The notes beneath the pieces are model-generated. The model did no database searches, was not told the origin of the DNA, and was given only the letters and a program-made list of their open reading frames with translations. The position numbers and the translations under genes are program-made. Of a DNA stretch of 61,606 nt, positions 6 through 61,606 are shown in pieces (within the stretch, counting starts at the first letter, position 1; the number at the start of each line of letters is the position of its first letter). Origin of the DNA: a virus (Duplodnaviria > Caudoviricetes); IMG/VR virus record IMGVR_UViG_3300030372_004181, positions 1 to 61,606 of that record; one strand, written 5' to 3'.

Positions 6-82
6 TATTGACAGTTGTCCCACATTATGCTATAATGTGGGCAACTTAACAGGAGAAAAAGCAAATGAAAGATCAAATGGAC
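6..82. repeat. Terminal direct repeat / circular assembly overlap (copy 1)
   Basis: 6..82 is identical to 61530..61606 (77 nt, a common assembler k-mer size), so the genome is probably complete and circular or circularly permuted. Confidence 0.9.
8..36 (+). promoter_or_regulatory. Consensus sigma70 promoter embedded in an imperfect palindrome
   Basis: TTGACA(8-13)-17 nt-TATAAT(31-36) with extended TG; inverted repeat AGTTG(T)CCCACATTAT-GCT-ATAATGTGGGCAACT spans 13..46. Confidence 0.9.
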
Positions 83-319
83 GACTTAATGAAACTAGCA
101 GAATCGTGTGTTGCAGCAGCAACTCCAGAGACACTGGAGCCCGAGAAGATACAGTTGGCAGACCTAACACAGCACAACATAAAACTGTTGGAGATGGTAG
201 CGAAACGCGACAACAAGATTGCGGAGCAGAAAGGCCAAATAGATTTCTTGCGCGTGGATCGAGATCAGTGGCGCTCGAAGTACGAACACGCGTTGGCTAT
301 CAACGTCATCAAAGAATAA
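65..319 (+). CDS. Hypothetical early protein (coiled-coil)
   Basis: AGGAG RBS, lies directly downstream of consensus promoter, heptad-like C-terminal half. Confidence 0.8.
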   Translation: MKDQMDDLMKLAESCVAAATPETLEPEKIQLADLTQHNIKLLEMVAKRDNKIAEQKGQIDFLRVDRDQWRSKYEHALAINVIKE

Positions 320-399: not shown

Positions 400-446
400 A
401 CACAACATATAGTGTTGCGAGCACGCTCGCATACTATATCTAGGGG
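400..446. promoter_or_regulatory. Tandem NrdR-box-like pair
   Basis: ACACAACATATAGTGT (400-415) and ATACTATATCTAGGGG (431-446), starts 31 nt apart; NrdR consensus acaCwAtATaTwGtgt. Confidence 0.65.
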
Positions 447-499
447 GCTCGCTTCGCTCGCCCCTTGCGCGTAGTCGCGCGGCGGCTGCGCCGCCGCGC
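417..499. repeat. GC-rich hairpins / CTCGCT-N-CGCTCG element upstream of terL
   Basis: GCGAG-CACG-CTCGC (417-430), CTCGCTTCGCTCG (448-460), 10-bp all-GC stem (477-499) in an AT-rich genome. Confidence 0.7.
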
Positions 500-621
500 T
501 CCTAGACAGGGTACCTGTAACTATTTGCAAAATACATTGTGTTGTTGTAGAGTGTTGACACCCCCTTTTTTAGCGAGGTACTTTATATGTGTGTATATAT
601 ATAATAATCTAGTCATAGAAT

Positions 622-2100
622 ATGAAGATAAAAGATTTCAAAGACCAAATAGGCGAATTAAATATAGAAGAGCAGAAAGAACTAAGTTTACTTTTAGAGC
701 GTCAAGAAAAAGCAAAGAGGACCCAAAAAGCTCAAGAAAAATTCTTGGACTTCGTAAAATTTATGTGGCCACATTTTATTGAAGGGACCCATCATAGAAT
801 CATAGCCGAAAAATTTGATAGAATAGCAAATGGCACTTTGAAACGTTTGATTGTCAACATGCCACCCAGACATACAAAATCAGAATTTGCATCATTCATG
901 TTACCCGCGTTTATCATGGGCCGTAATCCGATGACCAAGATCATTCAAACATCACACACCGCAGAGTTATCGCAGAGGTTTGGTCGTAAAACAAAACAGA
1001 TGATTGACGGAACAGATTTCAAACAACTCTTTCCACAAACAATGCTACAATCAGATTCTAAAGCTGCCGGTCGTTGGGACACAAGTGCAGGTGGTGAATA
1101 CTTCGCTGCCGGTGTCGGTGGTGCGATTACCGGTCGTGGTGCAGATTTGTTAATTATCGATGATCCACATTCAGAGCAAGACGCCCTAAGTGAAACGGCC
1201 ATGGAAGGTGCGTACGAATGGTATACATCTGGTCCTCGTCAACGTTTACAGCCCGGAGGTGCAATCGTTCTTGTTATGACACGTTGGTCAACGATCGATC
1301 TGACAGGACAGTTACTACAAGCACAAGTTGAACCCAAAGCTGATCAGTGGGAAGTTGTAGAGTTCCCGGCAATCATGGACAGCGGTAAACCGACATGGCC
1401 TGAGTATTGGAAGATCGAAGAACTTGAATCAGTAAAGGCATCACTTGCTATTTCAAAATGGAACGCACAATGGATGCAGAAGCCAACATCAGAAGAAGGT
1501 GCAATATTAAAACGTGAATGGTGGCAGCCATGGAAACACAAAGACAAACCAAACTTACACTACATCATACAAAGTTATGACACGGCGTTTAGTAAAAAAG
1601 AAACTGCCGACTATTCTGCAATTACTACCTGGGGTGTGTTCTCACCTGACGACGCAAGACCGGCTTTAATTTTACTTGATGCGCAGCGTGGTCGATGGGA
1701 CTTCCCTGAACTCAAAGAAATAGCGTCAGAAGAATATAATTACTGGGAACCTGAGATGGTTCTCATTGAAGCCAAAGCGAGCGGTATGCCGTTGTCCGAT
1801 GAACTTCGTCGAATAGGAATACCCGTAACCAATTATACACCATCCAGGGGTAACGATAAACGGACAAGGGTCAATTCAATTGCACCGATGTTTGAATCAG
1901 GCATGGTCTATTATCCAGAAAACAGAACTTTTGCAGAAGAAGTTATTGAAGAATGCGCCGCTTTCCCGTATGGTGAGAATGATGACTATGTCGATACGGT
2001 CACCCAAGCGTTGATGCGTTTTAGACAGTCAGGATTAATTCAACTACGGATGGACTACGAGCCAGAACCCGTAGATAATACAAGGAGAGTATTTTACTAA
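622..2100 (+). CDS. terL: Terminase large subunit
   Basis: Walker A NMPPRHTKS, GGAITGRGADLLIIDDP, C-terminal RNase H-like nuclease (SYDTA, DDYVD). Confidence 0.95.
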   Translation: MKIKDFKDQIGELNIEEQKELSLLLERQEKAKRTQKAQEKFLDFVKFMWPHFIEGTHHRIIAEKFDRIANGTLKRLIVNMPPRHTKSEFASFMLPAFIMGRNPMTKIIQTSHTAELSQRFGRKTKQMIDGTDFKQLFPQTMLQSDSKAAGRWDTSAGGEYFAAGVGGAITGRGADLLIIDDPHSEQDALSETAMEGAYEWYTSGPRQRLQPGGAIVLVMTRWSTIDLTGQLLQAQVEPKADQWEVVEFPAIMDSGKPTWPEYWKIEELESVKASLAISKWNAQWMQKPTSEEGAILKREWWQPWKHKDKPNLHYIIQSYDTAFSKKETADYSAITTWGVFSPDDARPALILLDAQRGRWDFPELKEIASEEYNYWEPEMVLIEAKASGMPLSDELRRIGIPVTNYTPSRGNDKRTRVNSIAPMFESGMVYYPENRTFAEEVIEECAAFPYGENDDYVDTVTQALMRFRQSGLIQLRMDYEPEPVDNTRRVFY

Positions 2101-49643: not shown

Positions 49644-49891
49644 CTGATAAAAATGTTATTAATGTATGCCTGTGTCCAGGGTGTGGCAATCTAACAACTA
49701 TGAAGAAAGTAGTAGATGACACTTTCTTTTGTAAACTTTGCCATCAAAAATTTAAACAGTATAAGAATGGTAAACTAATTTATGTTCCTTTACCGGTTGC
49801 TAAAGCAATGGAAGATAGTGAAATAATATTTGAATCTGATGCTGATTTGGATTTAGATATACAGTTTGATTTTGATCCAGAAGATTCTTAA
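49640..49891 (+). CDS. Zinc-ribbon protein with acidic tail
   Basis: CPGC...CKLC; ATGA overlap with polA. Confidence 0.75.
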   Translation: MTDKNVINVCLCPGCGNLTTMKKVVDDTFFCKLCHQKFKQYKNGKLIYVPLPVAKAMEDSEIIFESDADLDLDIQFDFDPEDS

Positions 49892-50196
49892 TTCTTAAAC
49901 TCGATAGCGTTAAACACCTCACCAACAATGGTCGACGGTCTACCGTCACTGTGGTATGTAGCGCAAGACTGTAGTTCTTCGAAAGGCACACCGTGTTGTA
50001 ATGCAACAGAAACCAATCTTCCAAACTCAGTTAATATATCAAACTTCTCTGTTCCAACTTTACCACCTCCACTTATCCATATCTCTTTAACTTTCTCGTC
50101 TTGAAACGAAACAGCGAGCCTGTAAGGCGTTCCTCCACTGTCAGTTATTTGGAAAGCGTACGCCGGACGACGGTTATCTAATTCTGTTCTACTCAT
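49888..50196 (-). CDS. Stand-alone NrdJ C-terminal (TSCPD-like) domain protein
   Basis: R..L.NRR...EI.I...K.G...SVALQHGVP.EEL...DGRPS pattern recalls class II RNR C-terminal region; no catalytic RNR domain. Confidence 0.65.
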   Translation of the reverse strand: MSRTELDNRRPAYAFQITDSGGTPYRLAVSFQDEKVKEIWISGGGKVGTEKFDILTEFGRLVSVALQHGVPFEELQSCATYHSDGRPSTIVGEVFNAIEFKN

Positions 50197-50365
50197 GTTC
50201 ACCGTTCTCTTTCTCCCATTCGTTGTAGTTTTCCCATTTATTTTTTAAATTAATCACTGATTTTTTTTGAAAGGGTTTTAATTTATCAAAAATATATGGG
50301 CGCATAACTTTTTTATAATGATGTTTTGCGCAAAAAATATCATATTTAGTAATTATATGAGGCAT
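50189..50365 (-). CDS. 58-aa hypothetical protein (not in ORF track)
   Basis: MPHIITKY...EKENGEHE; AGAAAG RBS; stop overlaps start of the TSCPD-like gene. Confidence 0.6.
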   Translation of the reverse strand: MPHIITKYDIFCAKHHYKKVMRPYIFDKLKPFQKKSVINLKNKWENYNEWEKENGEHE

Positions 50366-50402: not shown

Positions 50403-50449
50403 TAACAATATTTTGTTGACAGTCAATAGTATATTACTATATCTTGTGG
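50403..50449. promoter_or_regulatory. Tandem NrdR-box-like pair over divergent promoters
   Basis: TAACAATATTTTGTTG (50403-18) and TTACTATATCTTGTGG (50434-49), 31 nt apart; central TTGACAGTCAA supplies back-to-back -35 hexamers. Confidence 0.65.
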
Positions 50450-54117: not shown

Positions 54118-54585
54118 TTAGTCTTTAACTTCTTCTGAATCAACTTCTATTACGTTCATCTTACTCATCAAATCAGATATTCTTTCTTGTACTTCTGCGT
54201 CTGTAAGTTGATCTATCTTACCATGTTTGACATGCATTTCATTGATGTATAATCCTGCCGCCTTACCACGCGCAACTTCTGCCTGGACTGCTGCTGAATA
54301 GGATTCTTTTTCGACAGCCGCGTCTCTTATTTTTTGTAGTTCTTTAAAGTGTCTATCTATTGTTACGTTATATTTCTTTTGCACTTCTTCGCGCACACGT
54401 TTGATTTCTTCACAAACCAAAGGATAATATTTTACATTTTGTAGTTTTGAGGCATGATGTCTTGCAGATGACTCTGGGTAACCGGCACGTATGGCAGCTT
54501 CAGTTGCCGTTATCCGCCCTTCATTACTAATTAATTCGTGAACAAAAATAATTTGTTTTTCGGTTAGTTTCTTTGGTACTCCCAC
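54118..54585 (-). CDS. terS: Terminase small subunit
   Basis: LTEKQ..F...ATEAAIRAGY..SA...AS.L HTH pattern; AVQAEVARGKAAGLY; GTG start with GAAAGG RBS. Confidence 0.85.
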   Translation of the reverse strand: MGVPKKLTEKQIIFVHELISNEGRITATEAAIRAGYPESSARHHASKLQNVKYYPLVCEEIKRVREEVQKKYNVTIDRHFKELQKIRDAAVEKESYSAAVQAEVARGKAAGLYINEMHVKHGKIDQLTDAEVQERISDLMSKMNVIEVDSEEVKD

Positions 54586-54663
54586 GCTTGAGCCTTTCGC
54601 TTGATGCTTTTTTCACGCTTGCGCCTTCAGTTTTCTATTTTTTTCGCGCTTGCGCCTTCGGTT
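54585..54663. repeat. CGCTTG(A/C)GCCTT repeats upstream of terS
   Basis: Copies at 54585, 54616 and 54647 (31-nt period) plus a partial copy at 54598, separated by T tracts. Confidence 0.7.
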
Positions 54664-54680
54664 TTTTGTTTTTTTCCAAA

Positions 54681-54698
54681 TGTTGCAAAAATATCACA
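54681..54698. promoter_or_regulatory. 18-bp operator-like box (TGTTGCA-N4-TATCACA)
   Basis: Related to copies at 332, 60000 and 60678. Confidence 0.5.
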
Positions 54699-54736
54699 AA
54701 AATAAAAATTTTTCAAGTTTGGTTGTTTTTTGTTTG

Positions 54737-54785
54737 ACACAATATGTAGTGGTTTGATGGCTTTCATAAACACAAGATATAGTAT
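54737..54785. promoter_or_regulatory. Tandem NrdR-box-like pair
   Basis: ACACAATATGTAGTGG (54737-52) and ACACAAGATATAGTAT (54770-85), 33 nt apart. Confidence 0.65.
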
Positions 54786-54856
54786 GTTGATAACTCTAAG
54801 TCAATAGCAAAATAATATAAAATGCTATTGACAATTAGAAACAAATCATTTATACT
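54776..54856. promoter_or_regulatory. Divergent promoters (terS side / early genes side)
   Basis: + TTGACA(54828)-17-TATACT; - TTGACT(54804)-17-TATATC; 10-bp inverted repeat GTCAATAGCA/TGCTATTGAC. Confidence 0.7.
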
Positions 54857-54906
54857 AAGAACTAATTAAGATAAGCGACAAGTATATTCAAACTGAAAGA
54901 TAAAAA

Positions 54907-55089
54907 ATGAAAGATAAAATTACTAGCAAAAAAATCAATCAAAAACAAATAAAAATTATAGATGAGCATTTAGAATTAGAAAGTTTAGATGATTTATATG
55001 AAGAAGAAGAAGAAATCGAGCCTTATGAAACAGTTTATGAAAATGGCAAGTGGAAAAGCTCAAGGTATCGAATTAGTTTTAAGGATTAA
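54907..55089 (+). CDS. Small acidic hypothetical protein
   Basis: First ORF after promoter; GAAAG RBS. Confidence 0.65.
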
Positions 55090-55091
55090 AA

Positions 55092-55763
55092 ATGGGTAAA
55101 GTAAAAACAAAATACAAAAAATGTGATGACTGTGATGTTATTCTTGCTTATACTTTTAAGAAAAAATCAAAATGTTTAAGTTGTCGAAAAATATATCATA
55201 ATTATAGAAGAAAAGAATATGATAAAAAGTATTTAGAAAACAATCAAGAGAGAATTAAAGAATTTAAACGTAATTATTATTTGAATAATAAAGATTTAAT
55301 AATATTTAGGCAAAAAAATAATCCAAACACTAAAACAACACAGCGAAAAACATATCAAAAAAACAAATATAAAATACTCGAAAAACAGAAAATTTATAGA
55401 GCCAAAAACAAAGATAAATATAGCATAACAGCGAAATTATATCGAGACAAAAATAAAGAAAAACTTAAAAATTATTATAATAAATGGAGAATAGAAAATA
55501 AGCACATAATAAAAGCTAACTGTAAAAAGCAGAAGTTATCTAGGCTCAATAGAATTCCTAAATGGACTAACTTAAAAAAGATAAAAGAAATATATAAAAA
55601 CTGTCCTGAAAATTATCATGTAGATCACATTATACCTTTGAAGGGAAAAACAGTAAGCGGATTACATGTTCCCTCTAATTTACAGTATTTAACAGCTAAA
55701 GATAATTTCACTAAGAAAAACAGTTTTAAAGAAGAATATTTATTAATTAACGGATTAGGTTGA
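55092..55763 (+). CDS. HNH endonuclease (possible free-standing homing type)
   Basis: N-terminal CxxC pairs, Y/K-rich helical repeats, [20 protein letters not shown]...N. Confidence 0.88.
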
Positions 55764-55768
55764 AATTT

Positions 55769-56011
55769 ATGGGTAAAGTAAAAGATCAAGGATATATTGA
55801 AGCAGAATTATTTATTGATGAGACTGTCAAAAATATTCACCGAGAATTAATAACAGTACAAGAGGCAATAGAAATATTAAAAGAAAATTCACTTGTAACA
55901 ACATTTTTTAGTGATGATGATATTGATTTAATAGTTGACTTTGAAACTGACCTCTCAATAGATCATCAAGATATAGATTGTATGATAGATGACGAAGGGA
56001 CAATTCATTGA
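55769..56011 (+). CDS. Acidic hypothetical protein (MGKVK start)
   Basis: Same MGKVK N-terminus as the HNH gene, consistent with HNH insertion at this gene's start. Confidence 0.7.
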   Translation: MGKVKDQGYIEAELFIDETVKNIHRELITVQEAIEILKENSLVTTFFSDDDIDLIVDFETDLSIDHQDIDCMIDDEGTIH

Positions 56012-56229
56012 TGGCAAAAGTGATGGAGCAAAATAAATGGTGGAAACTTCACGGCGGTAGATACAACAAAGAAGGCTATGACCGATTAGGAATACATAAA
56101 GATAGTGCGAGAAGAAAAGAGCAAGACAAACAATTTAAAAAAGATTTTGCCTATATGGAGTGGAAAATAAATATTAGAAAAGAATTAGGAATAAAACCGA
56201 GAAAATTTTTTAAAGATAAAGATGAATAA
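56011..56229 (+). CDS. Basic hypothetical protein
   Basis: TGATG coupling. Confidence 0.65.
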   Translation: MAKVMEQNKWWKLHGGRYNKEGYDRLGIHKDSARRKEQDKQFKKDFAYMEWKINIRKELGIKPRKFFKDKDE

Positions 56230-56914
56230 ATTAGAAAGATTAATATTTAAAGACTTAACCAAAAATAATTTTACTTTGAAAAAAGCAAAAGAATTGACGG
56301 GTGGTGGCATAACAAGTCAAAATAAAAAAATGCCATTTTATAATTATGACCTATCAGCTTATGATTGCATTAAAGGTACAGCATTGAGACAAGTTAAAAA
56401 TTCAGTTTGTGCGAGTTGTTATGCAACAAAGGGCAATTTTCATTATCCATCAGTTAAGGCCAGCCATCAATATCATTTAAAAAGTTTAGACAATGGCTTT
56501 CAATGGGTGTTAGGTATGGCATATCAAATTATTAAAACACAAACAAAATATTTTAGATTTCATGCAAGCGGTGATTTACAAAGTGTTGACCATGCAATTC
56601 AAATTATTAATCTGGCAAAATTAACCCCGTCTTGTAAATATTGGATACCGACAAGAGAAACAAAAATTTTAAAAGACTTGAAAGAGCAAAATATAATTAT
56701 TCCAAAAAATTGTGTGTTTAGAGTTTCAGCGCCTTTAATTGATGGCTTTCTTAATAGTAAAGTTTTTAAAAATACAAGCGCAGTTATTTCAAATAAAGAT
56801 AAAGCAAGAAACAAAGATAAAAATTGTCCGAGTTTAAGTCAAGGGGGACAATGTTTAGATTGCAGAAATTGTTGGGATAACAGAATTAAAAATATTAATT
56901 ATTTAATCCATTGA
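56222..56914 (+). CDS. Gp88-like Cys-rich protein
   Basis: KMP...L.A..C..G...VC..CYA.KG...FRFH.SGD...WIPTRE...C..CR.CW. Confidence 0.75.
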   Translation: MNKLERLIFKDLTKNNFTLKKAKELTGGGITSQNKKMPFYNYDLSAYDCIKGTALRQVKNSVCASCYATKGNFHYPSVKASHQYHLKSLDNGFQWVLGMAYQIIKTQTKYFRFHASGDLQSVDHAIQIINLAKLTPSCKYWIPTRETKILKDLKEQNIIIPKNCVFRVSAPLIDGFLNSKVFKNTSAVISNKDKARNKDKNCPSLSQGGQCLDCRNCWDNRIKNINYLIH

Positions 56915-56939
56915 CAGATAGCATTTCATAGTATATAGT
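56911..56939 (+). promoter_or_regulatory. sigma70 promoter
   Basis: TTGACA-17-TATAGT. Confidence 0.7.
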
Positions 56940-56968
56940 GAGGATAATAAAAAAGAGAAAGAATAAAA

Positions 56969-57286
56969 ATGATAGCAACAAAAGAAACAATAGAGAATAT
57001 AGTAGGCAATAAATTTTTCTACATATCCTATTTTAAAAAAGATGGCTCATTGAGAAAAATGCAATCAGCAAGATTAAATGTCAAAAAACATTTGAAGGGT
57101 GGAATAAATAGAAATCCAAATATAGGAAAAAATCAATTAATAGTATTTGATAATAATATTTCAGAATATCGAACTATTAATTTAGATAAAATATATAAAA
57201 TAAAATGTGGTGGAATTGAACTAATTGACAATCTAACGCAAGATATATTTAAAGAATTAAATCAACATGAGAAAGAGAGGGCATAA
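56969..57286 (+). CDS. SH3-like beta-barrel (WYL-like) protein
   Basis: F.KKDGS.R.M..RL.VKK..KGG...VFD...YR.IN. Confidence 0.7.
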   Translation: MIATKETIENIVGNKFFYISYFKKDGSLRKMQSARLNVKKHLKGGINRNPNIGKNQLIVFDNNISEYRTINLDKIYKIKCGGIELIDNLTQDIFKELNQHEKERA

Positions 57287-57553
57287 ATGAGTAAGGCGAA
57301 ATATTGTGCAAATTGCGGGTTTAAGTTCTATCCAAACGCATATAGTTCATATCCACAACCTGAGTACGAATTTAACTCGGAAACTAGAGAAACTAATCGT
57401 TATCAAGTAGCGCCAGCACACAAACATTTCCATTCACAAAGTTGTATGAAAAGTTGGATTGCAAAAAACTCTCAATCTTTTTCAAGATTAGTTGATGAGA
57501 TTGAATATATTAATAACAATAACAATAACAATAACAATAGAGAAAGGGCATAA
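57287..57553 (+). CDS. Zinc-finger-like protein with poly-Asn tail
   Basis: YCANCG...FHSQSC. Confidence 0.7.
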   Translation: MSKAKYCANCGFKFYPNAYSSYPQPEYEFNSETRETNRYQVAPAHKHFHSQSCMKSWIAKNSQSFSRLVDEIEYINNNNNNNNNRERA

Positions 57554-57557
57554 AGCC

Positions 57558-58577
57558 ATGAGTAAAATAAGAATGAATGAAGAATATAGAACTAAAATTC
57601 TTAATAGGTTCGTCGAACATATTGAGGGCGAAGAAACACAAGAGAAAACAGCGTATCTAAATGCGATTGCAAATATGGAAAATATTTATCAATCAACATT
57701 TGAAGTCGCAAAAAAAGTTGTTGAAAGAGCATATCCAAAAGAAGATGTTGAAACTTGCAAGACATTAAAAGAAAAATATGGTTCACCTCTTGATGTTGTT
57801 GCAAAAGATAAATGTTTTTACTTTTCAAGAGCAAAAGAAATGAATGAAGAAATCGATCAATATTCAGATGACCATTCAGAACATTTTGATTTTGGCTTGT
57901 TTGGAGCAACAAACAATAGTGAATATAGTTATGATGAGGGAGGCAAAAAATTCGCATATGCTTACATGAGAGATCACTTAAAAGATAAAGGATTAAACCC
58001 AGATATAATTGCACAACAAAAAGATAATCAAGATAATCCTTATAAATCTCAATGTATAAACGAAAATGATGAGGCACTAGGCAGAAACGGGAGGTATTCA
58101 CGCTATAATTCAGATAGAGATAATAGTAATGGAATAACCAAACAATTTGATGAGGCTTTTTATTTAGATATAATTGGAACTTCACATTGTAGATCAAGAA
58201 CTATTGATTGTACTAGTGAAGAATTTGAAACATTTAAAATTTTTAAAAGTGCAAAATCAAATGTTGCCAATACTCACCAGATTTGGATTGATACCATTCT
58301 TAAACAAAAAGAAATGATTAAGACGGGCTTAAAAGCATATCGAACATTAATTGAAGGTGTTGAGCTTATGCAAGAGTTGGGAATTGAAATTGATGAGGCG
58401 GATTTAGTCAAGGTTAATTCAACGGGCTTAACCATGTATAACCCCGTCAATTTAGCAGACATGATTAAGGGCATGAAGAATAAAACAATGACAAGAGAGC
58501 AAAAGATCGCAGAAAGAATTAAATATGAAAGCGATCATGTTGTAGTTGTTGACAATTCTTCAAGTGCGGTAAACTAA
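57558..58577 (+). CDS. Hypothetical early protein
   Basis: Long ORF; start moved to ATG 57558 after GAGAAAGGG. Confidence 0.85.
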   Translation: MSKIRMNEEYRTKILNRFVEHIEGEETQEKTAYLNAIANMENIYQSTFEVAKKVVERAYPKEDVETCKTLKEKYGSPLDVVAKDKCFYFSRAKEMNEEIDQYSDDHSEHFDFGLFGATNNSEYSYDEGGKKFAYAYMRDHLKDKGLNPDIIAQQKDNQDNPYKSQCINENDEALGRNGRYSRYNSDRDNSNGITKQFDEAFYLDIIGTSHCRSRTIDCTSEEFETFKIFKSAKSNVANTHQIWIDTILKQKEMIKTGLKAYRTLIEGVELMQELGIEIDEADLVKVNSTGLTMYNPVNLADMIKGMKNKTMTREQKIAERIKYESDHVVVVDNSSSAVN

Positions 58578-58578
58578 T

Positions 58579-58767
58579 ATGATGTTGAATGACTTTATAA
58601 TTCAAGATCATGGAACATTGGTGGGGTTCGTCCCCACTAATGAGAAAGGTAAAAAATGGTGGCAAGATCATGTTGAAAATTGCACACAAAGAGGTTCAGT
58701 CTTTCTTGTTGAAAGACGTTATGCAAGATTAATTATAAGTGGTATTGAACACGATCTGGAAGATTAG
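58579..58767 (+). CDS. Small hypothetical protein
   Basis: DHGT...P...W...VERRY motif. Confidence 0.7.
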   Translation: MMLNDFIIQDHGTLVGFVPTNEKGKKWWQDHVENCTQRGSVFLVERRYARLIISGIEHDLED

Positions 58768-58770
58768 AGT

Positions 58771-58947
58771 ATGAGCAAAATTGATAAGGGTTATATATTT
58801 GAATATGATAGACATGAGAGCTATGAAGAAAATTTTAATGTTTGGCGACGACGCAACAATCGAGAACGGGAAAGCTTTGGTTTAGAAAGATATACAGACG
58901 AAGAGGCGATTAAAGTATTTGATGATATATTTATTGATATAAAATAA
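58771..58947 (+). CDS. 58-aa hypothetical protein (not in ORF track)
   Basis: MSKIDKGY...SYEENF..W...ERESFG; fills the gap. Confidence 0.65.
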   Translation: MSKIDKGYIFEYDRHESYEENFNVWRRRNNRERESFGLERYTDEEAIKVFDDIFIDIK

Positions 58948-58950
58948 TAC

Positions 58951-58979
58951 TTGTAATTTATACTATATTATGCTATAAT
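58951..58979 (+). promoter_or_regulatory. sigma70 promoter (extended -10)
   Basis: TTGTAA-17-TATAAT, with ATTATGC before -10 as in other early promoters. Confidence 0.7.
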
Positions 58980-59006
58980 AAGATATTAATTAAGAGAAAG
59001 AATTAT

Positions 59007-59225
59007 ATGATAAATCAAGAAATATTAAAACCCATTGTTGATTTAATTAAAACACTATCCAACAAACAAATTGAATTAAGCACAGAAATATTAAAAATTA
59101 GATATGAAAATTTGGAACTACTTAAAATATTAAAATCAAGTTCAGTTTTAAATCAAGATGAAATTATTAAAATATATAAGAAGGGGGAGGATTATGAAAA
59201 TTCAAAAATCGAAACTAGAAATTAA
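59007..59225 (+). CDS. Small hypothetical protein
   Basis: GAGAAAG RBS after promoter. Confidence 0.65.
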   Translation: MINQEILKPIVDLIKTLSNKQIELSTEILKIRYENLELLKILKSSSVLNQDEIIKIYKKGEDYENSKIETRN

Positions 59226-59325
59226 TTTGCTGAAACAAATCCAACAAAAAGTGAAGGACAGAATAAAGAAAGATTATAAAAATATAAATCTATCACCATT
59301 TTTTAGACAGCGAGGCAGATCATGA
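59194..59325 (+). CDS. 43-aa basic peptide (not in ORF track)
   Basis: GGGGAGG RBS. Confidence 0.55.
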   Translation: MKIQKSKLEINLLKQIQQKVKDRIKKDYKNINLSPFFRQRGRS

Positions 59326-59420
59326 AAAAGATAATTAGACAATTAACATTTGAGGGGTGGTTTGTTGTATTTGCATTTGGCTATATCATTTCTCAAGTGA
59401 TAAGATATTTTATACAATAA
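59322..59420 (+). CDS. 32-aa membrane peptide (not in ORF track)
   Basis: GAGG RBS, ATGA coupling, hydrophobic core. Confidence 0.5.
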   Translation: MKKIIRQLTFEGWFVVFAFGYIISQVIRYFIQ

Positions 59421-59541
59421 TTAAAATATTCCTTAGACGTCTTTGGATAGAGAGAGTGTCAAAACTATGTATGCACACGCTTTTTGATACTCTTTCGCTT
59501 AAATATATTGCTTATTTTTTCAAGTGTTGTTATCTTGAAAA

Positions 59542-59940
59542 ATGGCTATCAAAACCGAGTCAAAACTATGGCTCTTAATTAAAAAAAACACCCCATCAAT
59601 TTGTTGGAATAGATTGGAAAACAGTATTAATGCTGGCCTGCCTGATTTAATCGGCTCTATTCAAGGACATAATTTTTTCACTACTGAATTAAAGATAACC
59701 CACGACAACAAAACAATTCGATTTTCACCTCATCAAATAGCTTTTCATAAAGTCAATCATGGTATTAAATTTATTATGGTTGCGCCCCTCGACCTCTCAT
59801 GCCTAAAACTTTTTGACCATCAAATAGCCGTCGTCCCTCGACCATTGATCGCTGACTATGAACCATTGATAACGATCAATGACACAACGGACAAAAGACA
59901 ATGGACAAAGCTCATTAAAATAATTCAAAATAAATGCTAG
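59542..59940 (+). CDS. PD-(D/E)XK nuclease, VRR-NUC / Holliday junction resolvase-like
   Basis: ES.LW...W.RLEN...G.PDL.G...ELK...FSPHQIAFH. Confidence 0.78.
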   Translation: MAIKTESKLWLLIKKNTPSICWNRLENSINAGLPDLIGSIQGHNFFTTELKITHDNKTIRFSPHQIAFHKVNHGIKFIMVAPLDLSCLKLFDHQIAVVPRPLIADYEPLITINDTTDKRQWTKLIKIIQNKC

Positions 59941-59947
59941 AAAGTGC

Positions 59948-59976
59948 TTGACAAGATTAGATTTTCATGATATAAT
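59948..59976 (+). promoter_or_regulatory. Consensus sigma70 promoter
   Basis: TTGACA-17-TATAAT; no credible ORF directly downstream. Confidence 0.8.
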
Positions 59977-59997
59977 ACATGGTATAATAGGGGGAGA

Positions 59998-60019
59998 AGT
60001 GTTGCATTTTTGCAACACT
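59998..60019. promoter_or_regulatory. Perfect palindromic operator-like box
   Basis: AGTGTTGCA-TTTT-TGCAACACT. Confidence 0.6.
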
Positions 60020-60103
60020 CGCTGCGCTCGTGGGTTGGCGCTTGCGCGCTCGCTGGCGCTCGCGGGTTCACCTCCAGCTCGCTCGCTTGCGCTCGCTCGC
60101 TTG
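60018..60103. repeat. GC-rich GCTC / CTCGCT-N(1-2)-CGCTCG repeat island
   Basis: Multiple copies; paralogous island at 60696..60749. Confidence 0.8.
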
Positions 60104-60121
60104 TCCGTTATTCCTGGAAAG

Positions 60122-60130
60122 TTATCCACA
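60122..60130 (+). promoter_or_regulatory. DnaA box
   Basis: TTATCCACA, perfect consensus, intergenic. Confidence 0.6.
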
Positions 60131-60148
60131 ATTAATGCTAGAAAATGC

Positions 60149-60177
60149 TTGACAACGGACCACGAATAGTTTATAAT
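60149..60177 (+). promoter_or_regulatory. Consensus sigma70 promoter
   Basis: TTGACA-17-TATAAT; shares upstream AATGCTAGAAA(G/A)TGC with the 59948 promoter. Confidence 0.8.
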
Positions 60178-60209
60178 ATGGGGTGGCGGGGCGGGATAAA
60201 ATAAATATT

Positions 60210-60225
60210 TGTTTCACGTGGAACA
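60210..60225. promoter_or_regulatory. parS: parS site
   Basis: TGTTTCACGTGGAACA; reverse complement TGTTCCACGTGAAACA fits chromosomal consensus TGTTNCACGTGAAACA. Confidence 0.8.
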
Positions 60226-60234
60226 AATTAACCG

Positions 60235-60263
60235 TTGACAGCTGTGCTTTATTATGCTATAAT
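60235..60263 (+). promoter_or_regulatory. Consensus sigma70 promoter
   Basis: TTGACA-17-TATAAT with ATTATGC before -10. Confidence 0.85.
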
Positions 60264-60296
60264 TAATTAAATTAAACAAAGAGAAAGAGAAAGCAA

Positions 60297-60590
60297 ATGA
60301 AACAAACACTAACTGAATTTGAATTTTGTAATCAATTTAAAAAAATAAGACCAGACAATTTTACATATGAGGGATTGACTGCATTGTTCGCATACTTCGA
60401 ACAATGGGAAGCGGACACCGGTCAAGAGATGGACTTTGATCCAATAGCTTTTTGCTGTGAATGGGCAGAGTATAAAGACATGGAAGAATTAAACGAGGAC
60501 TATAATGCCGACTATGATTTTGAATCATTGTGTGGTGACACTCAAGTCATAGCAATGAGCAATGGCGGTATTATAGTACAAAAATTTTAA
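60297..60590 (+). CDS. Acidic early protein
   Basis: R.DNFTYEGL.ALF.Y.E...FDPIA.CCEW.EY; own promoter and RBS. Confidence 0.8.
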   Translation: MKQTLTEFEFCNQFKKIRPDNFTYEGLTALFAYFEQWEADTGQEMDFDPIAFCCEWAEYKDMEELNEDYNADYDFESLCGDTQVIAMSNGGIIVQKF

Positions 60591-60596
60591 CATATT

Positions 60597-60662
60597 CCCG
60601 GCGCTTTTATTTGCTTTAGCGCCGGGCTTTCTCGCGTCCTGGGTTGTTTAGTTCCCAGGGCG
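60597..60662 (+). terminator. Twin hairpins / putative terminator
   Basis: CCCGGCGCT/AGCGCCGGG (60597-60626) followed by CTTTCT; second stem 60635-60662. Confidence 0.55.
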
Positions 60663-60677
60663 TAGAAAAAGCTTGAC

Positions 60678-60749
60678 TGTTGCAAAAATGCAACGGCTCG
60701 CTGCGCTCGCTAGTTAGCGCCAGCTCGCTCGCTGCCGCTCGCTCGCTCG
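60678..60749. repeat. Operator-like box plus GCTC repeat island (copy 2)
   Basis: TGTTGCA-AAAA-TGCAACG followed by CTCGCTGCGCTCG...GCTCGCTCGCT. Confidence 0.75.
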
Positions 60750-60784
60750 TTTATTATTTTTTTTTAAAAAAAAATTAAAAAAAT

Positions 60785-60793
60785 TTATTCACA
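60785..60793 (+). promoter_or_regulatory. DnaA box-like site
   Basis: TTATTCACA fits TTWTNCACA; same relative position (after GC island, before promoter) as 60122. Confidence 0.45.
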
Positions 60794-60811
60794 AATTAAT
60801 TTATTTTATTA

Positions 60812-60840
60812 TAGACAACAATCCCATAATATGCTATAAT
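60812..60840 (+). promoter_or_regulatory. sigma70 promoter
   Basis: TAGACA-17-TATAAT, extended TG. Confidence 0.8.
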
Positions 60841-60869
60841 GATTCTCAACTAAACAAGGAGAAAGCAAA

Positions 60870-61121
60870 ATGAATCAAGAACAAAAAATAATAGAAGCAG
60901 CTCTAGAAGAATTTCAAATAAAAGATGTGAGAGCAGAGACAGTGTGCCAGGCTATGAAATGTATTTTTCTAGTGTGTTGTACTCGCGATGATAAAAACTT
61001 AAGTAAGATGGCAACGAGCGACCTCGGTCTTTCGCTATTAAAACTTGCTCAATTTTATGGTGAGTCTGGAGAAACTAATCGAAGAGATTTTATTCTCGCT
61101 GCCGCTCGCTGGAGAAACTAA
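60870..61121 (+). CDS. Hypothetical early protein
   Basis: AAGGAG RBS; own promoter. Confidence 0.7.
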   Translation: MNQEQKIIEAALEEFQIKDVRAETVCQAMKCIFLVCCTRDDKNLSKMATSDLGLSLLKLAQFYGESGETNRRDFILAAARWRN

Positions 61122-61137
61122 TCGAAGAGATTTTATT
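61066..61137. repeat. 29-bp direct repeat
   Basis: CTGGAGAAACTAATCGAAGAGATTTTATT at 61066-94 and 61109-37, flanking CTCGCTGCCGCTCG. Confidence 0.85.
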
Positions 61138-61142
61138 AACTA

Positions 61143-61184
61143 TTGACAGTTGTCCCACATTATGCTATAATGTGGGCAACTTAA
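61143..61184 (+). promoter_or_regulatory. Consensus promoter plus palindrome (repeat of the 8..49 cassette)
   Basis: Identical to 8..49 and 61532..61573. Confidence 0.9.
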
Positions 61185-61206
61185 AACTAAACAAGGAGAA
61201 AGCAAA

Positions 61207-61524
61207 ATGACACACGATTATAGAAAACGATTAGAACCGCAAGACTCACAAAAAACTGTGCACGTTGGTACAAGTGACACCAGCGGAGACGTTAAGGTAG
61301 CGGACTTACAACTTAGCCTAATGTATCGCGCATTGCTGGCGCATCCAAGGAAGTTAACGCGCACACAGCCGCCGGCCCTGGCATGGTGGAAACAGGTCTT
61401 TGGACTGAAGGGCAACAAAGAAAAAATAAAAGCCGAAGCTAAAAAGATATGGCTGGCAAGACTAGGCCCACAGGACGACGGCTACAAAGACCGAGTGTTA
61501 AAAGTTACAACCTCCGGTGAGTAA
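61207..61524 (+). CDS. Hypothetical early protein
   Basis: AAGGAG RBS; GLKGNK motif; flanked by identical promoter cassettes. Confidence 0.8.
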   Translation: MTHDYRKRLEPQDSQKTVHVGTSDTSGDVKVADLQLSLMYRALLAHPRKLTRTQPPALAWWKQVFGLKGNKEKIKAEAKKIWLARLGPQDDGYKDRVLKVTTSGE

Positions 61525-61529
61525 TTAAG

Positions 61530-61606
61530 TATTGACAGTTGTCCCACATTATGCTATAATGTGGGCAACTTAACAGGAGAAAAAGCAAATGAAAGATCAA
61601 ATGGAC
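61530..61606. repeat. Terminal direct repeat / circular overlap (copy 2)
   Basis: Identical to 6..82. Confidence 0.9.

Follow-up and report, generated by a model that had tools for sequence, protein, structure and literature searches.

Between its terminase genes, a marine phage carries strong promoters together with motifs resembling binding sites for host regulators, which raises the question of whether these sites serve the phage's own genes or draw off host proteins. The window, a complete 61.6-kb marine virus record (61,606 nucleotides), is related to Pelagibacter phage HTVC027P. A sequence-only reading of positions 54586-61606 had proposed a non-coding decoy array in which clustered sites, rather than phage proteins, take over the host. 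Promoters, parS, NrdR-type pairs, palindromes and GC islands are indeed present, whereas the DnaA box occurs at chance level. The span is best explained as a variable stretch of an HTVC027P-like marine phage genome, bounded by terS and terL and transcribed by the host RNA polymerase, and its sites for host regulators most likely time phage gene expression.

A gene-dense span between the terminase genes

The term non-coding does not hold for the span: ORFs cover 5666 of its 7021 bases (81%). There are 18 small ORFs, several with family matches, and 14 are tightly packed in one block (Table 1). Comparison of seven ORFs with L003, the closest relative, gave 43, 26 and 137 substitutions at codon positions 1, 2 and 3, a third-position bias. 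The region is best described as gene-dense and host-transcribed, with about four fifths encoding small proteins, rather than as a non-coding decoy. The available text of PMC12753301 reports that HTVC027P lacks an RNA polymerase gene and uses the host enzyme throughout infection, and the phage of the window is likewise best explained as being without its own RNA polymerase. A helicase and a DNA polymerase A are among its genes. A six-frame domain search of the whole record returned no ParB_N, ATP-cone, Bac_DnaA or RNR large-subunit domain, which agrees with the proposal that the cognate host proteins are not phage-encoded. Because nearly all genes lie on one strand, GC skew of the window is uninformative.

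At the terS border, the core CACGCTTGnGCC of the 31-bp phased repeats is invariant in L003 and L004; these repeats may be bent DNA, a packaging signal (TerS/pac site) or a regulatory element. At the terL border, the area of GC island 3 (396-520) has an RNA fold z-score of -4.11.

Table 1. Features of the span, its borders and the related locus outside it (window coordinates).
Feature	Coordinates	Strand	Remarks
RNR-associated TSCPD-domain gene	49888-50202	-	next to third NrdR-type pair
Third NrdR-type pair	50403..50449		15-bp linker; outside span; divergent promoter region, adjoins TSCPD-domain gene
terS, small terminase	54118..54585	-	left border; PHROG 51 E=9.5e-17; Pfam Terminase_2 E=2.8e-8
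Three 31-bp phased repeats	54583..54675		core CACGCTTGnGCC then T-tracts; directly upstream of terS
NrdR-type pair, terS side	54737..54785		ACACAATATGTAGTGG, 17-bp linker, ACACAAGATATAGTAT; six-position rule
Promoter TTGACA-17-TATACT	54828..54856	+	ahead of first ORFs; conserved in L003, L004
Block of 14 tightly packed ORFs	54907..59940	+	includes the named ORFs at 55092-59940
HNH endonuclease	55092-55763	+	within block
GP88-family protein	56222-56914	+	within block
WYL_2-like protein	56969-57286	+	within block
Conserved 339-aa protein	57558-58577	+	within block
Small resolvase-like protein	59542-59940	+	end of block
Promoter PA	59948..59976	+	family TGCTAnAnAnTnCTTGACA-17-TATAAT; consensus scan
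Palindrome	59999..60018		GTGTTGCA-N4-TGCAACAC; operator of the sequence-only reading; repeat scan
GC island 1	60018..60108	+	A-poor, GCTCGC/CGCTTG-rich array between PA and PB
Perfect DnaA box	60122..60130	+	TTATCCACA; ends 18 bp before PB -35
Promoter PB	60149..60177	+	consensus scan; relative alignment
G-run element	60177..60197	+	TATGGGGTGGCGGGGCGGGAT; start of predicted PB transcript
Perfect chromosomal-type parS	60210..60225		9 bp before PC -35
Promoter PC	60235..60263	+	first of promoter-RBS cassette family; repeat and consensus scans
97-aa ORF cassette	60297..60590	+	unrelated ORFs in its place in L003
Two GC-rich hairpins	60597..60662	+	after 97-aa ORF; putative terminators from reading of the sequence
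Second module copy	60677..60840	+	palindrome, GC island 2, A/T tract, TTATTCACA, promoter
Two single-gene cassettes	60870..61524	+	ORFs 60870-61121 and 61207-61524; promoters 60812, 61143 ahead
Last promoter cassette and start of 84-aa ORF	61532..61606	+	ORF resumes at window 65-319
NrdR-type pair, terL side	400..446		ACACAACATATAGTGT, 15-bp linker, ATACTATATCTAGGGG; 222 bp before terL start codon
GC island 3	417..510	+	strong hairpins; upstream of terL
terL, large terminase	622..2100	+	right border; PHROG 38 E=3.7e-108

Consensus promoters head exchangeable cassettes

Allowing one mismatch to TTGACA-17-TATAAT, the window has nine sites where 1.15 would be expected, and none of 100 shuffles reached nine. 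All nine are on the plus (coding) strand, within 54828-61560 or at window 8. Five perfect promoters stand where they had been reported (59948, 60149, 60235, 61143 and 61532) but represent four distinct sequences, not five, since 61143 and 61532 share one 29-mer and the one at window 8 repeats 61532 through the identity, read from the sequence, of 6-82 with 61530-61606. Copies of a promoter-RBS cassette lie at 58943, 60227, 60804, 61135 and 61524. These PC-type cassettes repeat with RBS and ATG at constant spacing, and the perfect promoters precede RBS and ORFs, again at a fixed distance. The consensus sigma-70 sites are thus best explained as probable working gene promoters of two kinds, the PC-type cassette and the PA/PB tandem. 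Promoter type, together with the available text on HTVC027P (PMC12753301), suggests that the genes of the span are expressed early.

PC-type cassettes are common to the window and L003, and the ORFs between them are unrelated. In metagenome contigs, sequence is joined or replaced at the cassette borders that also bound the swaps between window and L003, with joints at 60292/60293 to 60587/60588 flanking the 97-aa ORF cassette. The best explanation is that a ~75-bp promoter-plus-RBS cassette heads single-gene units and is probably also the point where such units are exchanged, lost or acquired. The stretch 60587-60670, which contains the two hairpins, is conserved in L003 (83.7%); a terminator scan did not flag the hairpins.

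A conserved tandem module with variable host-type sites

Nine contigs, the window included, share the arrangement PA, G-run, repeat array, PB, G-run, PC. A GCT[CT]G array occupies the position of GC island 1 in every relative, with units that vary between a 7-mer, a 12-mer and GCTCGC. A G-run follows 14 of 15 PA/PB-type promoters; the element TATGGGGTGGCGGGGCGGGAT is invariant across four aligned loci and has exact copies in eight IMG/VR contigs. The PA/PB pair is best described as flanking a fast-evolving, A-poor short-repeat array, each promoter starting at a G-run. In L003 the palindrome after PA retains its stem and has its loop flipped.

The sequence-only reading had seen the order of box, GC island, DnaA box and promoter twice, and we recovered the module at 59999-60177 and 60677-60840. 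The second copy consists of a palindrome (60677-60696), GC island 2 (60697-60749), a pure A/T tract, a relaxed DnaA box TTATTCACA at 60785 and the promoter TAGACA-17-TATAAT at 60812; the relaxed box likewise ends 18 bp ahead of the -35 hexamer. This copy was not found in L003.

The parS at 60210-60225 reads TGTTNCACGTGAAACA on the minus strand, with no mismatch to the consensus given in the available text of PMC7022226. Counted on both strands, this one site makes two matches against 0.01 expected, and none of 100 shuffles had two. It is present in two of nine module-bearing contigs (the window and L003) and missing from the other seven, which means that it can have no essential role. The single perfect DnaA box compares with 0.65 expected, and 45 of 100 shuffles held at least one. 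Its position before PB is occupied in L087 and holds a near-match in L002, and most PA/PB promoters have no box. The survey of relatives therefore does not support co-conservation of the sites: parS is confined to two of nine contigs and the second module is absent from L003.

NrdR-type box pairs at the terminase genes

According to the available text of PMC13584703 and PMC12051234, NrdR operators comprise two partially palindromic 16-bp boxes; the former gives predominant linkers of 15-16 or 26-27 bp, with spacing being crucial. We defined a pair by C4, A6, A8, T9, T11 and G13 in both boxes (PMC13584703, available text). This rule identified three pairs in the window (54737-54785, 400-446 and 50403-50449), and none of 300 simulated sequences held a six-position pair with a 15-16 bp linker. 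Three boxes fell within two mismatches of the NrdR consensus, against 0.20 expected.

In our own reading, the terS-side pair appears to overlap a minus-strand promoter-like site aimed at terS. It recurs with a 17-bp linker in L003, L004 and L088 and with a 14-bp linker in L089. No recognisable promoter overlaps the terL-side pair. Its equivalents are pairs in L002 and L003 (16-bp linker) and L042 (15-bp linker), and single boxes in L004 and 023Pt_psg01. In the terL spacer, a phage-specific palindrome and GC hairpins invariably border the NrdR-type box, and together they make up a repeated composite element. The third pair, which overlaps the divergent promoters at the TSCPD gene, is kept strictly in four of six related loci, the other two having one conserved position altered. 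One L003 box is identical in every letter to the synthetic NrdR box derived from the logo, the latter as inferred from a mutant listed in the available text of PMC13584703. No pair was found in the whole genome of HTVC027P or in the examined stretches of 023Pt_psg01 and DSL-LC04, indicating that the NrdR wiring is clade-specific.

Host regulators as probable inputs to phage genes

We consider it fairly likely, judging from sequence and placement, that the host regulators NrdR, ParB and DnaA are co-opted as cis-regulatory inputs to phage genes, and that there is no decoy array. Their operators would be embedded in short spacers beside strong promoters, with NrdR-type pairs at both borders, one over the terS promoter and one upstream of terL, a further pair at the RNR-associated TSCPD gene elsewhere in the genome, and parS and the DnaA box beside PB and PC. 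Host NrdR loaded with ATP plus dATP would bind DNA and repress both the TSCPD gene and the packaging genes until a shift in nucleotide state during phage replication, and ParB and DnaA may modulate the tandem promoters where their sites occur. The sites would work on the phage's own DNA, not as sponges. Because the NrdR-type pairs lie where operators lie, regulation of phage genes is favoured over titration of host proteins. Against the model stand the terS-side pair, whose 17-bp linker falls outside the predominant published lengths, the terL-side pair, over which no promoter is recognisable, the lack of any pair in the HTVC027P genome, the chance-level DnaA box and the patchy occurrence of parS; the model also explains the function of neither the G-run element nor the repeat array.

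That multiplying phage DNA instead titrates host NrdR, ParB, DnaA and RNA polymerase is quite improbable, as is the proposed outcome of derepressed host ribonucleotide reductase, disturbed initiation and segregation, and soaked-up RNA polymerase; titration of NrdR, the least improbable of these, is a minority possibility. In favour of titration, the sites themselves are real, parS and the NrdR-type pairs far exceed chance expectation, no RNR large subunit, NrdR, ParB or DnaA is encoded by the phage, and replication would raise the number of copies of the three NrdR-type pairs in each genome. In middle and late HTVC027P infection, host nrdAB increases 3- to 9-fold (available text of PMC12753301), and a pneumococcal phage induces the NrdR regulon as well (PMC6755750). 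However, HTVC027P, the source of the measured induction, has no NrdR-type pair, and therefore induction needs no decoy. Titration also fits poorly with the coding share of the span, with one parS and one chance-level perfect DnaA box per genome, with the restriction of parS to two of nine contigs and with the lack of the duplicated module in L003. The pairs sit at phage promoters in the manner of operators, and each PC-type promoter drives an ORF. The earlier observation is confirmed in part: host-regulator-like sites exist as had been seen, but neither the non-coding nature of the span nor co-conservation of the sites was borne out. The takeover interpretation is only partly supported, and the NrdR-type pairs are placed like phage operators. 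A purely accidental likeness, in which the palindromes are operators for phage proteins or functionless, is highly improbable: the chance-level DnaA box, the HTVC027P parS-like site inside an ORF, possibly a coding by-product, and the composite element of the terL spacer would agree with it, but the perfect parS, six positions in both boxes at three places with no canonical-linker pair in 300 simulations, the synthetic-box identity in L003 and the pair adjoining an RNR-associated gene all argue against it.

It is unlikely, though less so than the two alternatives above, that the PA-array-PB module, with its DnaA box, parS, A/T tract and G-run, is a replication origin or a genome-end/packaging region. 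The arrays would then be iterons for an initiator or terminase, the DnaA and ParB sites accessories, and the G-run after a strong promoter the seed of an R-loop primer. The array stands at the same place in all nine module-bearing contigs, adjoins the same resolvase-like ORF in HTVC027P and 023Pt_psg01, and shares its CGCTTG core with the 31-bp phased repeats by terS. Two more distant relatives have six and seven perfect DnaA boxes, including pairs 11 bp apart, in the 2.7 kb that precede terL. In L088, RNA of the array shows unusually little structure (z +3.74), which points to a role at the DNA level or as a single strand. Three of the eight contigs bearing the G-run element break inside the array, but tandem repeats commonly break contigs during assembly and molecule ends cannot be seen in Logan contigs. 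The repeat unit moreover differs among close relatives, no cognate binding protein was identified for the array, the phage encodes helicase and DNA polymerase A itself, and GC skew offers no guidance.

Comparison with known systems

The E. coli datA locus titrates DnaA, and such loci are dense non-coding site clusters. The window shares with datA the idea that DNA sites can reduce the free level of a regulator, but its sites are few, scattered among genes and located at phage promoters. Phage T7 has tandem host promoters A1, A2 and A3 at its early end, and the window similarly places three consensus host promoters within ~290 bp in front of its first small ORF and near short-repeat arrays. Unlike in T7, the genome ends are not known to lie at these promoters, and a phage without RNA polymerase has no later hand-over to a phage enzyme.

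NrdR pairs of RNR operons have the six conserved positions in both 16-bp boxes, as here (available text of PMC13584703 and PMC12051234). Two of the three window pairs also share the 15-16 bp linker, and one lies in the promoter region of the RNR-associated (TSCPD) gene. In contrast, the putative window sites belong to a phage without RNR large subunit or NrdR, and two of the pairs go with terminase genes; one of these has a 17-bp linker. The 16-bp parS consensus of chromosomal ParABS (available text of PMC7022226) is identical to the window site, which differs in being single, between two strong promoters, in a phage without ParA or ParB, and in just two of nine contigs with the tandem-promoter module. 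Promoter-early stem-loop (PeSL) cassettes are found in the hyperplastic regions of T4-type phages (PMC2839356 and PMC4122927, available text). The window comes from a roughly 61-kb HTVC027P-like phage rather than a T4-type myovirus, a stem-loop overlaps the -10 (CCCACATTATGCTATAATGTGGG) in two of five window copies, and the putative terminator hairpins form elements of their own. As with PeSL, a variable region has strong sigma-70-type promoters repeated among small ORFs of unassigned function, repeats bound the replacements and indels seen between close relatives, and hairpins accompany these repeats (PMC2839356 and PMC4122927, available text).

Coding content of the region between terS and terL

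The 61,606-base IMG/VR virus record is rated complete by CheckV, and the sequencing runs that contain this stretch are marine metagenomes. The TerL of the window is 61-65% identical to the TerL proteins of the Pelagibacter phages HTVC027P and HTVC023P and of phages 023Pt_psg01 and DSL-LC04; these phages, not T4-type myoviruses, are its nearest relatives. The ends of the record overlap (61530-61606 equals window 6-82, with a mismatch at position 5), so the promoters at 61532 and at window 8 are one site on the circular map. The comparison covered 80 of ~597 TerL relatives, and in 37 of these the sequence upstream extended for 1.7 kb or more. The closest of these is the IMG/VR contig L003, with a 98% identical TerL and 7.3 kb of upstream sequence. 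Four marine runs were also compared as Logan contigs, which show joints but neither where transcripts start nor where molecules end. The span had no megablast match in the phage collection, and the whole window had no match to an Rfam family.

The sequence-only reading regarded positions 54586-61606 as a non-coding landing pad or decoy array for host DNA-binding proteins. The span has eighteen plus-strand ORFs, preceded by ribosome-binding sites, that together take up 5666 of its 7021 bases (81%), which contradicts the non-coding part of that claim. Substitutions relative to L003 in seven ORFs fell at codon positions 1/2/3 as 43/26/137, and family matches among the ORFs were to HNH endonuclease, Pfam GP88, a WYL_2-like fold and three PHROGs. 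The longer non-coding gaps are listed in the table.

The ORF at 59542-59940 has a PD...ELK motif and resembles a small Hjc/VRR-NUC/RecU-type nuclease, which we take as a lead only; Hjc, VRR_NUC and RecU are the named clusters closest to it. Its counterparts are at ~16190-16500 in the relative L001 and at ~6010-6400 in L090 (phage 023Pt_psg01), and a GCTTG-type repeat array always comes after it. HTVC027P seems to have this ORF without annotation, and its annotated minus-strand gp32 overlaps the array. The HNH endonuclease ORF (55092-55763) is precisely missing from L003, and one contig of marine run X7 has 49 other letters instead; judged by these comparisons, it behaves like a free-standing mobile endonuclease. 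The 339-aa ORF at 57558-58577 aligns to several distant relatives, HTVC027P included, and is a widely shared gene. Summed contig depths (window 57556-58571, four marine runs) were 10- to 100-fold higher over this ORF than over the adjoining ones.

Coordinates of features in the window and, for the DnaA-box clusters, in two related contigs
Feature	Position	Detail
terS	54118-54585	- strand; left border of region
terL	622-2100	right border of region
Non-coding gaps >100 bp	54586-54906, 59421-59541, 59941-60296, 60591-60869	plus 320-621 before terL
NrdR-type pair	boxes 400/431, 400-446	15-bp linker; adjoins terL
NrdR-type pair	boxes 50403/50434, 50403-50449	15-bp linker; outside span
NrdR-type pair	boxes 54737/54770, 54737-54785	17-bp linker; adjoins terS
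Contig joint	60292/60293 to 60587/60588	
Contig joint	54834 to 55765	49 other letters between
Contig joint	61093 to 61136	
DnaA-box cluster, L028	5486-7760	TerL identity ~65%
DnaA-box cluster, L057	1652-4038	TerL identity ~65%

NrdR-type box pairs at the terminase genes

PMC13584703 describes an NrdR site as a pair of 16-bp boxes with conserved positions C4, A6, A8, T9, T11 and G13; binding needs both boxes, and the linker between them measures either 15-16 bp or 26-27 bp. NrdR from E. coli and from S. coelicolor is reported to bind heterologous sites. Three pairs in the window fit this six-position rule, bearing out the NrdR-like pairs of the sequence-only reading, and all six positions are conserved in 6 of 6 boxes. 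Single six-position boxes number 27 in the window vs 18.3 expected, so pairing alone is informative. First-order Markov simulation, run 300 times, gave no pair with a 15-16 bp linker. The pair at 400 is outside the span proper, where it continues to terL, and the 50403 pair is elsewhere in the genome.

Pairs border terS in the window, L003, L004 and L088 (17-bp linker) and in L089 (14-bp linker). At the terL border, pairs were found in the window (15-bp linker), L002 and L003 (16) and L042 (15), and single boxes in L004 and 023Pt_psg01. No NrdR-type pair was found in HTVC027P, nor in the examined stretches of DSL-LC04 and 023Pt_psg01. One L003 box, ACACAACATCTAGTGG, equals the logo-derived synthetic NrdR box as inferred from a mutant in PMC13584703. 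The 17-bp linker of the terS-side pair is outside the optimum published there.

Read by eye, a promoter-like site on the minus strand is directed toward terS, and the terS-border pair overlaps its -10 and start region; L088 and L089 have the same arrangement. The terL-side pair overlaps no recognisable promoter. The 50403 pair lies within a 114-bp spacer between divergent genes, and its boxes overlap promoter-like hexamers on both strands, again by eye. Four of the six related IMG/VR loci retain this pair in its strict form and differ at non-conserved positions only; in the other two, one conserved position is changed. The gene at 49888-50202 (minus strand) encodes a stand-alone TSCPD domain (PF12637, E=4.4e-7), a domain known from class II ribonucleotide reductases. 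Collectively, the pairs are candidate operators, with a geometry that would suit repression of phage genes by host NrdR. For these and the other candidate sites, we infer protein binding from sequence.

parS and DnaA boxes

PMC7022226 gives the chromosomal parS consensus as the 16-bp palindrome TGTTNCACGTGAAACA. The proposed parS was confirmed as an exact match on the minus strand at 60210-60225 (0.01 expected). Among 9 contigs with the PB module (promoter PA, G-run, array, promoter PB, G-run, promoter PC), parS is present only in the window and L003, short of the conservation expected of a functional site. Matches within one mismatch occur in L007, where the sequence reads as spacer, and in HTVC027P, inside the nuclease-like/resolvase-like ORF; by our estimate, fewer than 0.1 would be expected by chance in the ~0.8 Mb scanned. 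Its position inside a resolvase-like ORF in HTVC027P weakens parS as a family-wide feature.

The claim of DnaA boxes held for one perfect TTATCCACA at 60122 but not beyond chance, with 0.65 expected and no cluster. A relaxed box at 60785 is ~660 bp from it, and each has an 18-bp gap to a -35 hexamer. L087 has a DnaA box at the equivalent position and L002 a near-match there, but most PA/PB promoters have none. The more distant contigs L028 and L057 have 6 and 7 perfect TTATCCACA boxes, respectively, within 2.7 kb upstream of terL, some paired 11 bp apart and beside GC-rich hairpins.

Promoter cassettes and gene replacement

The five perfect TTGACA-17-TATAAT promoters are present. Allowing one mismatch, nine promoters were counted where 1.15 were expected, a number that none of 100 shuffles attained; all are on the plus strand and within the region. 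They form two families, the PA/PB type and promoter-RBS cassettes. The cassette has five copies (58943, 60227, 60804, 61135 and 61524), each ahead of one small ORF. The copies with promoters at 61143 and 61532 have an inverted repeat across the -10, and separate hairpins lie at 60597-60662; a terminator scan flagged neither. The cassettes and the hairpins at 60587-60670 are common to the window and L003, and the intervening ORFs are unrelated. Contigs of four marine runs have joints at the same borders as these window/L003 swaps (examples in the table).

A GC-rich insert of 14 bases lies between two exact direct copies of a 29-bp stretch (61066-61094 and 61109-61137) and alters the C-terminus of ORF 60870-61121. 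The insert-free form was found in one contig of marine run X9, with the last joint of the table. The 16 bases at 61095-61110 equal 60728-60743 of GC island 2. GC segments seem to be copied around the genome.

A conserved module of tandem promoters, G-run and repeat arrays

PA (59948) and PB (60149) have a common upstream motif, TGCTAnAnAnTnCTTGACA. Fifteen PA/PB-type promoters were found in 9 contigs, with a G-run directly after 14 of them. The PB version of the G-run, TATGGGGTGGCGGGGCGGGAT, is invariant in four aligned loci and has exact copies in 8 IMG/VR contigs. An A-poor, GCT[CT]G-based array lies between PA and PB in every contig with the module, its units being CGCTTGA heptads, GTTCGCTTGTAG 12-mers or, in the window, GCTCGC. 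In HTVC027P and 023Pt_psg01, too, an array of this kind comes after the homologous nuclease-like ORF. GCTCGC occurs 18 times on the plus strand of the window vs 5 for its complement, nearly all in spacers, and 7 of the 8 CGCTTG copies are in spacers. In 023Pt_psg01 (L090 6400-6440 and 8770-8850), the G-run complement CCCACCC[AG]CCCC was seen at three plus-strand places, one within the array.

The palindromes and GC islands of the sequence-only reading are real, and the order palindrome, island, DnaA-type box, promoter does occur twice; the second module copy (60677-60840) is missing from L003. The palindrome at 59999-60018 keeps its 8-bp arms, and its central A/T run is TTTTT in the window and AAAAA in L003 and L087. 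GC island 1 was rejected as coding sequence (73-aa frame, 59948-60169) because relatives have 7-mer or 12-mer arrays in its place. Structured RNA was likewise rejected for the GC islands, with fold z-scores of -1.71 (PA leader), -1.67 (L004) and +3.74 (L088 array). The hairpin-containing terL spacer was the only clearly structured RNA among the tested stretches (fold z -4.11). A Rho-loading site, boxA-like antitermination, Chi-like sites and -35 mimicry were considered for the arrays and G-run, and none is claimed.

At the other end of the region, three 31-bp phased repeats (CACGCTTGnGCC plus T-tracts, 54583-54675) abut the terS start. L003 and L004 have the core unchanged, and L088 and L089 also carry it ahead of terS. 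Such repeats may serve as a TerS/pac site or as bent DNA with a regulatory role.

Discussion

The region as a whole, with its variable early-type gene content and its promoter cassettes, is of a familiar kind. Phages borrow host transcription-factor sites, for example LexA and DnaA sites. Less familiar are the canonical NrdR-type pairs that an RNR-less phage carries beside its terminase genes, the perfect chromosomal parS on a ParB-less phage and the conserved G-run and array module. Literature searches returned no description of phage terminase genes with NrdR operator pairs, nor of chromosomal-type parS on a phage without ParB.

As the sequence-only reading stated, the cognate proteins are not phage-encoded: no ParB_N, ATP-cone or Bac_DnaA domain was found, and the phage has no RNR large-subunit domain. 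That replicating phage DNA titrates a scarce repressor is possible in principle, and PMC12753301 describes a 3- to 9-fold rise of host nrdAB during HTVC027P infection. Yet HTVC027P induces nrdAB with no NrdR-type pair in its genome; the induction therefore needs no decoys, and NrdR decoys were rejected as its cause. Nor does the mostly coding span form a decoy array, as it holds one parS, one perfect but chance-level DnaA box, one NrdR-type pair (54737) and promoters that each serve an ORF. Co-conservation across relatives, the check named by the sequence-only reading itself, was not found, with parS in 2 of 9 contigs and the second module absent from L003. Taken site by site, NrdR-type pairs recur, whereas parS and the DnaA box are mostly missing in relatives. 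For the sub-region of PA, array and PB, the main rival to an operator role is a replication origin or genome end, which would be compatible with operators there. GC skew was rejected as an origin marker; its rise is almost monotonic because nearly all genes are on one strand.

A narrower form of host takeover, partly through DNA sites, would be a dual-use device in which the NrdR operators of an RNR-less phage gate phage genes and then titrate NrdR. NrdR would gate the packaging genes early in infection. As genome copies rise, the operator pairs would titrate the scarce NrdR, host nrd would be derepressed and phage DNA synthesis would be fed. The parS would load host ParB clamps onto phage DNA, with ParB and DnaA operators carried in some lineages only. 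We regard such a device as improbable.

If NrdR does bind the candidate operators, the timing of DNA packaging would be tied to the host dNTP sensor. The phage group is abundant, marine and fully dependent on host RNA polymerase, and the region offers a testable handle on its early/late gene order. The analysis also defines a conserved non-coding module of tandem promoters, G-run and heptad or 12-mer arrays.

The closest known parallel to the cassettes is with the PeSL cassettes of T4-type phages, for which PMC2839356 and PMC4122927 describe the same swapping behaviour. As with PeSL, a strong sigma-70-like promoter recurs among the small ORFs of a variable region, the replacements and indels between the window and L003 are bounded by cassettes, and the joints in metagenome contigs agree. 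PeSL cassettes come from T4-type myovirus genomes, whereas the window phage is related to HTVC027P, extending PeSL-style cassette shuffling beyond T4-type phages.
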